Below are positions 45,788-60,491 of a stretch of DNA of 64,000 nucleotides, one piece after another. This DNA comes from an uncultured Chloroflexia bacterium (GTDB taxonomy: Bacteria; Chloroflexota; Limnocylindria; Limnocylindrales; CSP1-4), in the NCBI GenBank assembly GCA_963828165.1, contig CAWHDR010000001.1:2368001-2432000 (forward strand), written 5' to 3'. Both the position numbers and the translations under genes were made by a program. How positions within the stretch are numbered: the stretch's first letter is position 1; every line of letters starts with the position of its first letter. The notes under the pieces are model-generated. The model was not told where the DNA came from, made no database searches, and saw only the letters and a list, made by a program, of their open reading frames with translations.

Positions 45788-45958
45788 CGTCAGCCTCAGG
45801 CACCATTCGCCTACAAAGGTGCAGGACCGGCGAGCGCACGTCACCCCCAGGCACCATCGGGGCACAGCCGTGCACGATCGATCGCTCAGGCGGGCCGAAT
45901 CGCCCTACCAAGCGGTCGATCACGCGGATCTGTCGGTAAATCGTGCCTGAGGGTGACA
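45788..45958. repeat. 171-nt REPIN-like element, copy 1
   Basis: CGTCAGCCTCAGGCACC (45788), CGTCACCCCCAGGCACC (45839), inverted CGTGCCTGAGGGTGACA (45942-45958). Confidence 0.85.
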
Positions 45959-51017: not shown

Positions 51018-51188
51018 CGTCACTACCAGGCACGAAAACCGTACATGTCAGCGTGATCGCACGGCTGCCGTCACCACCAGGCACGCTGATGGCACAAACG
51101 AGCGTGACCCGTCACTCATGTGGTCCCGGATCGCCTACGAAGCGATCGATCACGATGGACGATGCCGGATCGGTGCCTGGGGCTGACG
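51018..51188. repeat. 171-nt REPIN-like element, copy 2
   Basis: CGTCACTACCAGGCACG (51018), CGTCACCACCAGGCACG (51069), inverted GGTGCCTGGGGCTGACG (51172-51188); same offsets as copy 1. Confidence 0.85.
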
Positions 51189-52488: not shown

Positions 52489-53374
52489 TGGACCGTCTCC
52501 TGTGGGAGGGATCGGACGAAGTCACGGATGAGCAAGTTCGCGAGGATCGGATGGCGGGCCGGGATCATGTGGTCGGCGCCCTCGACTTCGACGAGTGGCG
52601 CGCCGGTCAGCTCGGACAGCCGCCGCGACCGCTCGACGGGCTGGCAGGTGTCCTCGGTCCCGTGGACGAGGAGCAGCGGGCAGCGAACGGCGCGGAGCGT
52701 CGCCAGGATGTCGTCGAGCTCGAAGTCCTGGGCGAGCAGGTTGTCGGCGATCATCGCGTCGATCGAGCCCTCGAGCGCCCACTCCACGGCGTCCTCGATC
52801 TGCTTGGTCGAATGGGGCTCGGAGGTGATCTCTTCGAAGAAGAACCGGGCGAAGCCCGCGTAGTCCCGACGAAAGTAGTGCTGGTTGACCTTCGCCCAGC
52901 CTTCGTCGGTCGGCAGCTCGTCCTCGAAGGACCACTGGACCTTGAACGGGTGCGGTGGCGCCATGCCCGGCACGCCGGCCGCGAAGGAGACGATGCCGGT
53001 GACACGCTCCGGCTTGGCCGCGGCCAGCTCGATCGCGCGCCAGACGCCATCGCTGCACAGTCCGACGAGGACTGCGGCCGGCGTTCCCGTGGCATCCATG
53101 ACGGCCTCGATATCGCCGACGCAGCCGCTCCTCGCGGTAGTCATCGGGTTCGGTCGGGCGGTCGGAGCGCCCGTTGCCGCGGCCGTCGAAGGCCACGACC
53201 CGGTGCTGCCGGCTGAAGTAGGGGACCTGGCCCTTCCACTGGCGCGAATGGACGATCGGCGTCGATGGGAGGAACACGATCGTCGGGTCGCCAGCGCCGA
53301 ACACTTCGTAGGCGATCCGCACGCCGTCGGCGACTGGTGGCGATGCCGGCCTCGGCCGGCTCGACCGCGCGCAT
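52485..53374 (-). pseudogene. Alpha/beta hydrolase with two frameshifts
   Basis: MRAVEP.. / DGVRIAYEVFG..FDGRGNGRSDRP / VGDIEAVMDA..GADH in three frames; shifts near 53332 and 53121. Confidence 0.8.
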
Positions 53375-54327
53375 CAGGCGGTCCGCCGACCGAAGCCCGG
53401 GTGGACCGAGGCCACGAAGTCGCGGAGAAGCAGGTTGGTGAGGACCGGGTCTCGAGCATCCGGGATGTGGCCTCCGCCCGCGATGGTGACGAGCCGCGCG
53501 CCACGGACCGCCTCCGCGAGCGCGATACCCGGCCCGGCGCCGGAGATCGCGTCGTTGTCGCCGACGATCACCAACACGGGGCAATGGACCCGAGCGGCCA
53601 GGGCAAGCGTCTCCTCGGCGCTCAGGCCGTCGGCGTGGTGGCCCGTGACGAGCGTCTCGGCCCCGATCTCGTGGCCCCAGCCGACGCAGTCCTCGATCTG
53701 CTTGGTGGAGTGCGGCTCATTGAAGCAGCGCGAGAAGAAGAACTGGAGGAAGCCGTCGAGATCGCGCCGCCAGTAGTGCGCGTTGTACTTGGCCCACCCC
53801 TCGTCGGTGCCCAGCACGTCGTCGAACGGGAGCCAGCGCCGTCCCGGGAGGCGCCTACCGATCGGCAGGCTCGGGCCGATCGCAACGAAGCCATCCACCC
53901 GATCCGGGTGCTCTGCGGCGACCAGCAGACCGCGTTGGGCGCCGAGCGACAACGTGACCAGCGTTGCCCGGGCCGTGGCCGTGGCGTCCATGACCGCCAC
54001 GATGTCGGCGGCCATCTCGCGCTCGTCATACGACTCCGGCTCTGCCGGTCGGTCCGACTTGCCGTTGCCGCGTGGATCGAACGTGACGACCCGGCAATGG
54101 CGGGCGAAGTAGGGGATCTGGGCTTTCCAGAGTCGCGAGTGCACGATGTGCCAGGTCGGCACGAACAGGATCGTCGGTCCGCCTTCGCCATACACCTCGT
54201 AGGCGACCCGCACGCCGTCACGTTCGACGAGGCCCTCGGCATCGGGGTAGCGGGCGCGCATCTGCTCGTGAACGCCGGTGTCGGTGGCGGTGGCGTGCGC
54301 GTGGACCGGGGGCGTGTCGACGGCCAT
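53374..54327 (-). CDS. Alpha/beta hydrolase
   Basis: DGVRVAYEVYG, FDPRGNGKSDRP, TLSLG elbow, GDND, GGGH; start could be 54261. Confidence 0.9.
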   Translation of the reverse strand: MAVDTPPVHAHATATDTGVHEQMRARYPDAEGLVERDGVRVAYEVYGEGGPTILFVPTWHIVHSRLWKAQIPYFARHCRVVTFDPRGNGKSDRPAEPESYDEREMAADIVAVMDATATARATLVTLSLGAQRGLLVAAEHPDRVDGFVAIGPSLPIGRRLPGRRWLPFDDVLGTDEGWAKYNAHYWRRDLDGFLQFFFSRCFNEPHSTKQIEDCVGWGHEIGAETLVTGHHADGLSAEETLALAARVHCPVLVIVGDNDAISGAGPGIALAEAVRGARLVTIAGGGHIPDARDPVLTNLLLRDFVASVHPGFGRRTA

Positions 54328-56449: not shown

Positions 56450-56482
56450 CACGCACCTCCCCATGCCCACGTGTCGGGGCTA

Positions 56483-56516
56483 TCGGTCAATCGACCGACA
56501 TCGGTCGAACGACCGA
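56483..56516. promoter_or_regulatory. Tandem palindromic operators, probably TetR-type
   Basis: TCGGTC-AATC-GACCGA (56483-56498) and TCGGTC-GAAC-GACCGA (56501-56516). Confidence 0.75.
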
Positions 56517-58071: not shown

Positions 58072-59057
58072 CCGCGGCCGAGGAGCTCATGCGGTCCGTC
58101 GGGGCGTGGCTCGGCGGGCTCGACGCCGGCCAGCGAAAGCGTGCGACCTTCCCGTTCGAGAGCACCGAGCGCGTCGTCTGGGACTATCGCCCGGGTGAGC
58201 GGGGTGGCCTCGCACTCGCCGACATGCGCCCGGACCAGCGCTCCGCGGCGATGACCGTGGTACGTACCGCGCTCAGCGAACGTGGGGCGAACGAGGTGGC
58301 GTCGATCATCGCCCTCGAAACGGTCCTGGGCGAGCTCGAGCGCGACCGTGGCCGTGATGGGTGGATGCGCCGCGACCCGGAGCGGTACTGGTTTGCGGTG
58401 TTCGGTGACCCGGGCTCGGATGGGCCGTGGTCATGGCGCGTCGGGGGGCACCACGTGGCCATCCAGCTGACCGTCGCCGACGCCCGCATCGTGGGCAGCA
58501 CGCCGTCCTTCCTGGGTTCCAACCCGGCCGTCGTGCCGAGCGGGCCGACGGCGGGTCAGCGCGCCCTCACCGGCGAGGAGTCACTGGCCCGGGCGCTCGT
58601 GGATAGCCTGTCGCCGGAGCAGCGGGCGATCGCGATCGCGGATGCCGTGGCGCCGCCCGACATCCTGAGTGGGAATGGCGCGCGCGCCGACGTCTCTGCG
58701 ATCCCCGCCGGGATCCGCCACGACGATCTGACGGAGGCTCAGCAGGAGGGCCTGGAGCGGCTGATCCGGCATTACGTGGGGCGGGCACAGGACGAGGTTG
58801 CCGCCGCGGACTGGGGGCGGATCAGGGAAGCGGGCCTCGCCGCGATCACGTTCGCCTGGGCTGGTCCACTGGGCCCCGGTCGTGGCCACTACTACGCGGT
58901 TCGCGGCCCCGGCTTCCTCGTCGAGTACGACAACACCCAGGACGGCGCGAACCACATCCACGCGGTCTGGCGCGACCTCACCAACGACTGGGGCGAAGAC
59001 TTGCTCGCTGCGCATTACCGCTCGGGCCATCGCGAACGCGGAATAACCGGGAGATAA
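58068..59057 (+). CDS. DUF3500-like protein
   Basis: Y.FAVFGDP..WSWRVGGHH, YYAVRGP.FLVEYDNTQ..ANHIH.VWRD..ND.G. Confidence 0.8.
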   Translation: MTAAEELMRSVGAWLGGLDAGQRKRATFPFESTERVVWDYRPGERGGLALADMRPDQRSAAMTVVRTALSERGANEVASIIALETVLGELERDRGRDGWMRRDPERYWFAVFGDPGSDGPWSWRVGGHHVAIQLTVADARIVGSTPSFLGSNPAVVPSGPTAGQRALTGEESLARALVDSLSPEQRAIAIADAVAPPDILSGNGARADVSAIPAGIRHDDLTEAQQEGLERLIRHYVGRAQDEVAAADWGRIREAGLAAITFAWAGPLGPGRGHYYAVRGPGFLVEYDNTQDGANHIHAVWRDLTNDWGEDLLAAHYRSGHRERGITGR

Positions 59058-59080
59058 GCCCTGGCGGCCATCCTCATCGA

Positions 59081-59824
59081 ATGGATGACGCTCGCGTCGG
59101 CCGATCGCTCCGCGTCCTGCGACAGCGGCGTGGACTGCGACAGTCTGAGGTTGCGATCGCTGCGGGCGTCTCCCAATCCACCGTTTCTGACGTGGAATGT
59201 GGTCGCGTGGCCCGTTTGCCGATGGCGACGATCCGGCGAATCTTCGCGGCTGTCGATGCTGGCTTCGAGGGCACGGTGCAATGGCGTGGCGCCGGCCTCG
59301 ATCGATTGCTCGACGCCCGGCATGCCGCTTTGGTGGCGGCGAGCGTCCGTCGCCTTGGCGGCCTCGGCTGGCAAACGAAGGTCGAGACGACGTATTCGAT
59401 CTATGGGGAGCGCGGTTCGATCGACGTGATGGGCGGTTTCGTGAAGCTGCGTGCGGCCCTGGTCGAGGAGGTCAAGTCCGAGCTCCCGAGCCTCGAGGAA
59501 ACCATTCGAAAGCTCGACGAGAAGGTCCGACTCGTGAGAGAGCAGATCGCGGAGCGAGAGTTCGGTTGGCGTCCCGAGTCGGTCGGTCGGCTGCTGGTTC
59601 TGCCGGATTCCACAACCTCGCGGCGCCGAGTGATGGCCTTGGATCCAGTACTCCGTGTCGCCTTCCCAGATCGCGGATCTTCAGTGCGAGCGTGGCTACG
59701 CAACCCTTCCGGCGACCTGTCCGGGATCCTGTTTCTGCCTGATATCGCCACAGGCGATCGTAGCCCGGACCATCGCGAGGTCCAGCGCGTGCGGGGCCGC
59801 CGAGATGGCGAATTTGGGCCCTGA
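59081..59824 (+). CDS. XRE-type HTH fused to putative PD-(D/E)XK nuclease domain
   Basis: LRQRRGLRQSEVAIAAGVSQSTVSDVECG; GW..KVE..GSIDV..LVEEVKS; more T/A-ending codons than neighbours. Confidence 0.75.
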   Translation: MDDARVGRSLRVLRQRRGLRQSEVAIAAGVSQSTVSDVECGRVARLPMATIRRIFAAVDAGFEGTVQWRGAGLDRLLDARHAALVAASVRRLGGLGWQTKVETTYSIYGERGSIDVMGGFVKLRAALVEEVKSELPSLEETIRKLDEKVRLVREQIAEREFGWRPESVGRLLVLPDSTTSRRRVMALDPVLRVAFPDRGSSVRAWLRNPSGDLSGILFLPDIATGDRSPDHREVQRVRGRRDGEFGP

Positions 59825-59914
59825 TATCGCCCCCCGCAATCGTTGGTGCCCATTTCGTGGCAACTGCGCCGCCGATCCCTCGTGGGCCGAACCTACGATC
59901 GCCGGGGGCGATAT
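59742..59914. repeat. Two direct plus one inverted 20-nt repeat at the 3' end of the HTH-nuclease gene
   Basis: ATATCGCCACAGGCGATCGT (59742), ATATCGCCCCCCGCAATCGT (59824), inverted ACGATCGCCGGGGGCGATAT (59895-59914). Confidence 0.8.
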
Positions 59915-59985
59915 TCGGGGGATTCGCCGGGAAAGGGTGAGGCGTGGCGGGTCCGGACCCGCACCTGATCCTTGAAGCCGCACCT

Positions 59986-60444
59986 TCAGCGCGGATGGAG
60001 CTCGAACACCGGTCGACCCTCGGCCGCTTCCACGGGTCGTCTGATGTCTACCCCATCGACGATGCGAATGAACGTGACGCCGAACGGGATCCTTCGCGCG
60101 AGGGGGCCAAGGATGTCGCGAAAGAACTCCACGCTCTCGGTCGGGTCCAGCTCGGTCGCTCGTACTACTTCCTCCTGACCGCGGTAGTTGACGGTCGCGC
60201 GTCCGGCAGCCCGCAGATTGCGCACCCAATGGACCTCGCCCCAGGGCGCCCAGATGAACCTCCTGCCCGAGACCGCGATGATCGCCACCGGTGTGGTCCG
60301 AGGCAGGCCACTCTTCCGGCCCGGAATGGTGATGAGCCCGTTGTAGCCGATGGGAACGCCAGCGGCCAACAGGAACTTGAGGATCGGGCTGAACAGCGAG
60401 ACCTGCAGCGGTACGTGGGCGACCCTGCCCATCTGCGTTGTCAT
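59986..60444 (-). CDS. Deazaflavin (F420)-dependent nitroreductase-family oxidoreductase
   Basis: ITIPGRKSGLPRTTPV, WVRNLRA, PVFEL; GGAAGGAG upstream of ATG. Confidence 0.8.
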   Translation of the reverse strand: MTTQMGRVAHVPLQVSLFSPILKFLLAAGVPIGYNGLITIPGRKSGLPRTTPVAIIAVSGRRFIWAPWGEVHWVRNLRAAGRATVNYRGQEEVVRATELDPTESVEFFRDILGPLARRIPFGVTFIRIVDGVDIRRPVEAAEGRPVFELHPR

Positions 60445-60491
60445 CTGCACGGCTCCTTCCCGCGTCGGTGCGTTCCAGGTATCACAAGGAT

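Follow-up and report, generated by a model that had tools for sequence, protein, structure and literature searches.

A putative cognate partnership between an XRE-HTH/PD-(D/E)XK protein family of Chloroflexota and a composite palindromic element at the end of its gene

According to the abstracts of studies on repetitive extragenic palindromic (REP) sequences, the associated RAYT gene is typically single-copy and vertically inherited, the repeats are the part that is copied, and gene clades and repeats co-vary (PMC2817692, PMC3116915, PMC5581495). One of these abstracts gives REP numbers of more than 100 copies per genome (PMC2817692). The controller (C) proteins of restriction-modification (R-M) systems are described, again at abstract level, as dimers on paired palindromic operators beside their own gene, which control the gene of a PD-(D/E)XK endonuclease (PMC2175313, PMC2504287). 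Here we analyzed 64,000 nucleotides (nt) of DNA (hereafter the window) from an uncultured soil/freshwater Chloroflexia bacterium (Limnocylindrales; CSP1-4). It contains a gene for a 247-amino-acid (aa) protein that combines an XRE-type helix-turn-helix (HTH) domain with a PD-(D/E)XK nuclease-like domain and ends within a composite of three palindromic sites. Coordinates are window positions unless a locus is named. The sequence comparisons give good support to a putative cognate pair, in which a dimeric HTH-nuclease would co-evolve throughout the family with its own composite palindromic element, and the end of the gene lies within this element. The whole reading that we favor, a partnership similar to that of RAYT and REPIN but of different chemistry, is drawn by analogy, and we place its probability at about 0.55. 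The literature, at the level of abstracts, yielded no description of such a protein-repeat system.

The window was searched on both strands with the pattern ATATCGCCNNNNGCRATCGT, allowing two or fewer mismatches. Exactly three matches were obtained, all of them exact, compared with 0.12 expected, and none of 100 shuffled controls reached at least three. Copy 1 (59742..59761, plus strand) is the left arm and lies in the coding tail of the gene; copy 2 (59824..59843, plus strand) is the middle copy and starts at the A of the TGA stop codon; and copy 3 (59895..59914, minus strand) is the inverted right arm. The three copies span 59742-59914, which corresponds to 173 nt. The core of the site is a 15-base-pair (bp) palindrome, ATCGCC-N3-GGCGAT, which is perfect in copy 1 (59744-59758, ATCGCC ACA GGCGAT) and copy 3 (59898-59912, ATCGCC GGG GGCGAT) and imperfect in copy 2 (ATCGCC CCC CGCAAT). 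Because the core is palindromic, the designation of a copy as direct or inverted is fixed by the flanking bases alone. With this qualification, the arrangement of two direct 20-mers and one inverted 20-mer over 173 nt described in an initial annotation, which had been made from the sequence by itself, is retained. Its match of 18 of 20 positions between the inverted and second copies was also reproduced (two mismatches in 20 positions between copy 2 and the minus-strand reading of copy 3). The 22-nt arms at 59742-63 and 59893-914 are 91% complementary. On the basis of these arms and sites, we delimited a composite element of approximately 180 nt at 59738..59919, to which no strand is assigned and which overlaps the final 27 codons of the gene, its stop codon, and the intergenic space between the convergent genes.

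Copy 1 encodes the residues P-D-I-A-T-G-D-R. It follows the F218 codon after 12 nt, and the dyads in the homologues have this codon offset too. In a comparison with L001, the closest relative (87% protein identity), the noncoding copies 2 and 3 are conserved at 18/20 and 16/20 positions, respectively, versus 30/52 in the spacer after copy 2 and 31/71 in the sequence beyond copy 3. An origin of the three copies as a chance or coding artefact is ruled out by the shuffles, the within-gene controls given below, and the conservation of the noncoding copies.

The family was sampled at 80 homologue loci (Chloroflexota/Limnocylindria; approximately 660 kb in total), which are designated by L numbers. 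One site is found at the same tail codons, followed mostly by inverted copies after the stop codon, and the three-site layout of approximately 170 nt is a trait of the family. At 74 loci, the 45 nt that follow the F218 codon were compared, as 14-mers, with the 250 nt after the stop codon, and 958 pieces from the same genes served as the control. Recurrence with one or no mismatch was found at 12 of the 74 loci (one of them, L047, is a self-overlap artefact) versus 21 of the 958 control pieces. With up to two mismatches, the numbers were 32/74 and 150/958, and 26 of the 32 matches were inverted. A 15-bp dyad with at least five of six symmetric outer pairs was present in the tail at 19 of 78 loci, compared with 145 of 2118 control blocks (Fisher p 2e-6), and was usually located 12 nt after the F218 codon. 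When sites specific to each locus were counted with up to two mismatches (46 loci), their density was 3.02/kb in the 300 nt after the stop codon, 0.94/kb upstream, and 0.31/kb elsewhere, which is an enrichment of approximately 10-fold. With one mismatch at most (19 loci), it was 2.8/kb in the 300 nt after the stop codon versus 0.04/kb elsewhere (approximately 70-fold).

The loci that share the gene neighborhood of the window (described below) have the same core motif at the same places, at times in more copies. In L005, three copies precede the gene, one lies within it, and two follow it; L010 has site triplets on both sides of the gene; and L006 has an array with a 50-nt period. Paralogues outside this neighborhood have the same layout with other sites, namely TACCAC..GTGGTA (L028, L034, and L021), ATCAC..GTGAT (L038), ACGAAC..GTTCGT (L030), and ACCAAT..TTGGT (L014). 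Cognate copies within 300 nt upstream of the start codon were found in about seven loci (L005, L010, L021, L029, L053, L059, and L065). Several loci contain tandem arrays with a period of approximately 50 nt, in which site and spacer are repeated together, and the copy number is variable in L020, L034, L026, L038, and L006. A masked run of N at L010:1370-1600 falls within an apparent tandem duplication, where a sequence of approximately 50 nt ending in AAATATCG is present on both sides, before the downstream three-site element. Simple tandem arrays within 300 nt after the stop codon were also observed in L071 (25 nt x 8), L078 (18 nt x 7), L066 (39 nt x 5), and L004 (26 nt x 4), with no obvious relation to the tail dyad.

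Copies of whole elements are found away from the family gene in two loci. L021 contains three alignable cognate elements of approximately 170 nt, whose mean column identity is 75%. One covers the gene tail, a second directly precedes the promoter, and the third is an orphan located 4.6 kb upstream. L015 has a 213-nt orphan element of 76% identity on the opposite strand, which begins approximately 10 nt after the stop codon of an unrelated acyltransferase gene and contains the stretch that codes for the tail in the family gene. The elements have been duplicated as units, at low frequency in the sampled flanks. Because the spacers of these whole-unit copies are alignable, they appear to represent copied DNA rather than independently evolved operators.

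The gene (59081..59824, plus strand) was delimited as an open reading frame (ORF) with full-length 247-aa homologues of up to 87% identity. Its HTH domain (residues 6-59; 59096..59257, plus strand) matches Pfam HTH_31 with an E value of 1.1e-11 and 45.4 bits (cut-off 27), and HTH_3 over the same residues with 25.0 bits (cut-off 23). Residues 32-39 (QSTVSDVE) form the recognition helix. In PDB sequence and fold matches, the domain resembles HigA2, C.BclI, C.AhdI, DdrO, and HipB. Matches of the protein to PDB chains by sequence and to PADLOC and PHROGs (defence and phage families) are confined to the HTH. Beyond this domain, no match was found in Pfam or NCBIfam, and the catalytic domain is without a Pfam model.

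The PD-(D/E)XK nuclease-like domain (residues ~72-220; 59294..59740, plus strand) was assigned using an AlphaFold2 (AF2) model and Foldseek. The C-terminal domain was modeled with a predicted local distance difference test (pLDDT) value of 93.4. Its named Foldseek matches in the PDB, down to rank 36, are all PD-(D/E)XK proteins, and the top ranks have a probability of 1.0. They include the restriction-like endonuclease (RLE) domain of the R2 retrotransposon, NucS/EndoMS, AF1548, SduA, PspGI, PfoI, XisH, and Hjc, with modest template modeling (TM) scores of 0.35-0.49. The full-length model gave the same set of fold matches. E102, D115, and E130-V-K132 are invariant in 81 of 81 sequences, down to approximately 45% identity, and likewise in a 30-sequence alignment. 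The tail encoded by the region of site copy 1 (residues 224-247) is disordered in the model, with pLDDT below 50. In the homodimer obtained by structure prediction, the contacts involve residues 1-16 and 43-77 (the HTH and linker). The ipSAE score was 0.58 versus 0.00 for the best control, the run-to-run contact agreement was at least 73%, and the partner pLDDT was at least 79. Of 30 solved homodimers, 20 attain this mark, as does 1 of 23 monomers, and since XRE dimers have already been solved, the pass may reflect likeness to known structures. The initial annotation had read the ORF as a 247-aa protein with an XRE HTH and an E..D..EVK motif of nuclease type and had taken the fold to be that of a nuclease, and the Pfam, alignment, and Foldseek results agree with it.

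We compared the HTH sequence with the site sequence by calculating the information shared between protein residues and the bases of the 15-mer at the fixed offset, using 300 shuffles as the control. For residue 33 in the recognition helix, the shared information is highest at site bases 2-3 (0.56 and 0.78 bits) and at the positions that mirror them, and none of the 300 shuffles attained these levels; the mirror pattern follows from the palindromy and is not independent evidence. Residue 37 shares most information with base 4 and its mirror, above all 300 shuffles. In the phylogenetic tree, lineages with Q33 are found in separate clades with ACC half-sites and have sisters with Ser, Ala, or Pro and ATC half-sites, and lineages with Gly or Asp have ACG. 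For Q33, 3.5 of 4 independent pairs changed in the same direction and none in the opposite direction, and a second test gave 2.4 of 3 with none opposite, numbers that are too few for significance. The repeat sequence thus changes with the protein clade, as the initial annotation had anticipated, both in the differing sites of the paralogues and in their tracking of residue 33. Homologues with flanking repeats, which it had also predicted, are seen throughout the family in the matches between tail and downstream region and in the site density.

The gene lies between genes for a class II aminoacyl-tRNA synthetase and an FNR-type protein in 15 of the 80 loci. In the tree, the window and 13 of the 15 syntenic loci form one supported 14-row clade (support value 97, starred); L054 is its sister and L013 is placed elsewhere. 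The shared neighbors and the single supported clade indicate that this gene lineage is vertically inherited. A syntenic and vertically inherited gene had been named in the initial annotation as an outcome speaking against its proposal, and this is what was found. The annotation had also noted a codon usage different from that of the neighbors, which is evident in the GC content of third codon positions (GC3), 0.71 in the gene versus 0.81-0.92 in the seven neighbor genes. In all 16 syntenic loci, GC3 of the family genes is below that of the neighbors (0.69-0.85 versus about 0.78-0.96), with a family median of 0.80 compared with about 0.88-0.95. Because it is low in every syntenic locus, the odd codon usage is an old trait of the family and not a sign of recent transfer. 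No paralogue was found in the window (best other tblastn E value, 1.7). Additional family sequences were observed close to two of the sampled genes: a truncated second copy (residues 97-220, 50% identity) at L026:2509-2880, 2.1 kb upstream of the gene, and a divergent paralogue at L017:9547-10059, 4.5 kb downstream of the family gene.

An alignment of 73 loci at the start codon revealed two features upstream of the gene. Two direct boxes, AATAAC (59042-47) and GATAAG (59053-58), are separated by 5 nt and occupy 59042..59058 (plus strand), at -39..-34 and -28..-23 from the start, respectively. The second box contains the TAA stop codon of the upstream DUF3500 gene. A -10-like hexamer, CATCCT (59069..59074, plus strand), is placed for a transcript starting at the A of the ATG. 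In the family, the boxes are two direct G(A/T)TAAG sequences located 11 nt apart, with A at -36 in 50/73 loci and A at -25 in 50/73 loci; in the -10 hexamer, A at -11 is found in 47/73 and T at -7 in 53/73 loci. The double box occurs once in the window, and its five strict matches in the 660 kb of loci all precede family genes. It is conserved across paralogues, whereas the dyads differ between them. No sigma-70 consensus promoter was detected by a simple scan. These features fit a conserved, family-specific promoter of the leaderless type with two GATAAG-type boxes, and they agree with the probable leaderless start and the upstream ATAAC..GATAAG repeat reported in the initial annotation. The database version of the window protein is 200 aa long and begins at M48 (100% identity, 81% coverage), without the HTH part encoded at 59081-59221. 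Leaderless starts in the family would explain why annotation truncates the HTH, as expected if the start was overlooked because it lacks a ribosome-binding site.

The likeness to RAYT and REPIN lies in the gene flanked by its own palindromic repeats, in the inverted pair forming a doublet of approximately 100-200 nt (here on the 3' side, plus the 5' side in about seven loci), in the covariation between gene clade and repeat, and in the single-copy vertical gene. The proteins are different: XRE-HTH and PD-(D/E)XK domains are found here, and there is no match to an HUH/Y1 transposase in Pfam or NCBIfam at E <= 1. In contrast to the single-strand hairpins of REPs, the sites appear to be double-stranded dyads suitable for an HTH dimer, and one copy is always in the coding tail. 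In the comparison with C proteins, C.AhdI and C.BclI give the best superpositions with the HTH (TM on target 0.80 and 0.68; root-mean-square deviation 1.2-1.3 Å). However, the HTH and nuclease fold are in one chain, no methyltransferase gene is present among the seven neighbors, most sites are 3' of the gene and not at the promoter, and the gene is chromosomal and syntenic.

Two further types of system share some of these features. Transposase ORFs of insertion sequences (ISs) often overlap the right inverted repeat. The present gene resembles ISs and miniature inverted-repeat transposable elements in that inverted repeats delimit the element into which the ORF runs, and in that short copies lacking the gene are present at other places. 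Unlike ISs, the gene is not multicopy (no window paralogue, and syntenic orthologues), the inverted repeats bound a 3' element of approximately 180 nt and not the whole gene, and no known transposase family is matched. Modular endonucleases such as the R2 RLE, NucS/EndoMS, and type II restriction enzymes have the same catalytic fold and D...ExK motif (TM on query 0.45-0.49 for the R2 RLE and 0.38-0.40 for NucS). The TM scores are modest, however, the sequence identities are 12-20%, and no PDB chain is related at the sequence level outside the HTH. To our knowledge, none of these endonucleases carries its own sites within its own gene.

Several results weigh against a RAYT/REPIN-like partnership. 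After phylogenetic control, the covariation of Q33 had a median p of 0.125 in an underpowered test, and the tree behind the independent-pair tests included the helix-3 columns. The copy number observed in the window and the sampled flanks is low compared with that of REPs: no further 20-mer of the gene's own motif was found in the window outside its 3' end, and three other core matches in the window each have a mismatch and are all far from the gene. In a search of +-5 kb around the gene in ~76 loci, only L015 and L021 had whole orphan elements, which are 3-5 kb from the gene. The synteny in 15 of the 80 loci and the generic hairpin measure, which was not enriched in the tails (stem of at least 5; 29/79 versus 325/1103), point in the same direction. 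A further candidate link, Leu at residue 37 with A at base 4, was present in the shared-information table and failed in the independent pairs (2 in the same and 2 in the opposite direction).

The main alternative, which we consider rather unlikely, is an XRE transcription factor of the ordinary kind that regulates its own gene. Its operators would be the palindromes, with looping between the promoter side and the 3' side, the orphans would be operators of other regulated genes, and the nuclease fold would serve only for oligomerization or ligand sensing. An HTH of the repressor/antitoxin/C-protein type, 15-bp dyads typical of dimeric HTH proteins, about seven loci with cognate copies ahead of the start codon, and conserved boxes that overlap the promoter are in accordance with such a regulator. 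It does not readily account for the location of most copies after the stop codon between convergent genes, for the recurrence of composite elements as wholes with alignable spacers, or for the invariance of the E-D-E-K residues in 81/81 sequences. The architecture of HTH and PD-(D/E)XK cleavage domain could alternatively belong to a homing- or restriction-type endonuclease that stands alone and cuts rarely, has sites only at its own locus, and persists selfishly by break-induced gene conversion or post-segregational killing with no mobilization. The site is long (12 specified bases) and within the 64 kb is found only at the locus, and repeated break repair could yield the variable tandem arrays beside the sites in L020, L034, L026, L038, and L006. 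Nevertheless, we regard this as improbable, because no methyltransferase or immunity gene was found among the seven neighbors, the sites are intact and not split by the gene, the synteny is stable over deep divergence, and orphan whole elements exist elsewhere.

An explanation independent of the encoded protein is that the inverted arms act in RNA, where a long-range 3' stem would stabilize or terminate the mRNA at the convergent junction. The RNA fold of 59735-59925 has an energy of -97.1 kcal/mol (z = -3.4 versus shuffles), the tail-to-downstream matches are predominantly inverted (26/32), and the elements sit just past the stop codons. However, the minimum-energy and centroid folds pair different copies, Rfam gave no match at E <= 1 in 58900-60100, and there is no intrinsic terminator with a T-run at the repeats (the only terminator-like match, 59707-59726, is inside the gene; the shuffle mean is 0.5). 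The dyads keep a 15-bp span whatever the stem length, and this constant span together with the lack of generic hairpin enrichment favors a protein site rather than an RNA stem. Copies are also present upstream of promoters and in direct tandem arrays, and the site sequence tracks an HTH residue. We therefore consider an RNA-level role the least probable of the three alternatives and very unlikely.

In the favored RAYT/REPIN-like partnership, a dimeric HTH would read the 15-bp dyad ATCGCC-N3-GGCGAT with its AT-rich 5' flank, with an intact PD-(D/E)XK domain attached. The last codons lie within the element of ~180 bp, formed by an outer inverted pair of sites and a weaker middle copy, and the protein would be translated from a leaderless mRNA made from the family-specific promoter with two GATAAG-type boxes. 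Each paralogue lineage keeps the same layout with its own site sequence, so that protein and element would co-evolve as a cognate pair. The gene is stable and vertical, while the element can be duplicated in tandem (period ~50 nt), upstream of the gene, and rarely to other intergenic places. Binding of these sites by the protein is likely. We infer that this site-specific nuclease, putatively single-copy and domesticated, binds the palindromic element private to it and may nick or cut it, whereas a role of the protein in copying the element is suggested only tentatively. By binding in its promoter region and at the 3' end of its gene, the protein would probably also regulate its own expression.

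The family is large, its catalytic domain is without a Pfam model, and the system is apparently undescribed. If the pairing is functional, it would be a second, chemically unrelated case in which a single-copy nuclease and its own palindromic element co-evolve, which bears on the origin and persistence of REP-like repeats. The HTH variants and their matched 15-bp sites would form a natural series and provide a readable specificity code, and the loss of the HTH from annotation through leaderless starts would be illustrated.

The window also contains two orphan three-site elements of 171 nt with the motif CGTCA-N4-CAGGCAC, both with steps of 51 and 104 nt. Their sites are at 45788/45839/45943(-) in the element at 45788-45958 and at 51018/51069/51173(-) in the element at 51018-51188. 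They have the three-site geometry and the step of ~51 nt in common with the element of the gene. However, BLAST revealed no similarity of the gene's element to either orphan, nor between the two orphans. The initial annotation had proposed, as a hypothesis only, a link to this 171-nt family and a paralogue flanked by the CGTCA..CAGGCAC motif; no sequence is alignable, leaving the link hypothetical, and arrays of this motif were found at none of the 80 family loci. Of its expectation of orphan copies, the whole cognate elements in L015 and L021 stand, while the window contains none of the gene's own motif. Its overall interpretation is thus upheld with respect to the fold, the flanking repeats, the tracking of clades, and the family layout, and not with respect to orphans of the gene's own motif or the 171-nt link. 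A broader proposal, which we consider speculative and rather unlikely as a whole, is a new class of domesticated mobile-DNA partnership in which the nuclease reads double-stranded 15-bp dyads by a simple and evolvable code of its recognition helix, where residue 33 would set bases 2-3. The nuclease would cut or nick its cognate three-site element of ~170 nt, giving rise to tandem and new intergenic copies. Every element family would be driven by a paralogue of its own, which for the CGTCA-N4-CAGGCAC elements would be encoded at another place in the 2.9-Mb genome. The inner blocks of the 171-nt elements (~45899-45925 and ~51129-51155) read ATCGCC ... GCGATCGAT, which is similar to the gene's motif with a longer spacer and could be due to chance at 69% GC.

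A homologue search gave 1948 word-indexed matches, in which the family is confined to Chloroflexota, mostly in metagenome-assembled genomes (MAGs) of the Limnocylindria type. A profile search with the C-terminal domain gave 1949 representatives of 50% identity clusters at E <= 1e-3 and 1423 at E <= 1e-10, and the architecture is the same in all 150 matches listed. An Atlas search returned only hypothetical proteins of Chloroflexota. The MAGs of L055 and L066 are titled Patescibacteria group and Chromatiaceae, respectively, while all other loci are from Chloroflexota; this probably reflects binning or labeling and not transfer.

The seven neighbor genes encode a DUF1326 protein, a class II tRNA synthetase, a DUF3500 protein, a protein of the F420H2 quinone reductase family, a sigma-70 r2/r4 factor, an FNR-type oxidoreductase, and an S9 peptidase. 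The F420H2 quinone-reductase family gene (59986-60450) is the convergent 3' neighbor. Elsewhere in the window, a 185-nt direct repeat of 74% identity is present at 53144-53328 and 54035-54219, 891 nt apart. An 18-nt tandem repeat of 1.9 copies, ATCGGTCAAACGACCGAC, is located at 56482-56516, upstream of the tRNA synthetase gene.

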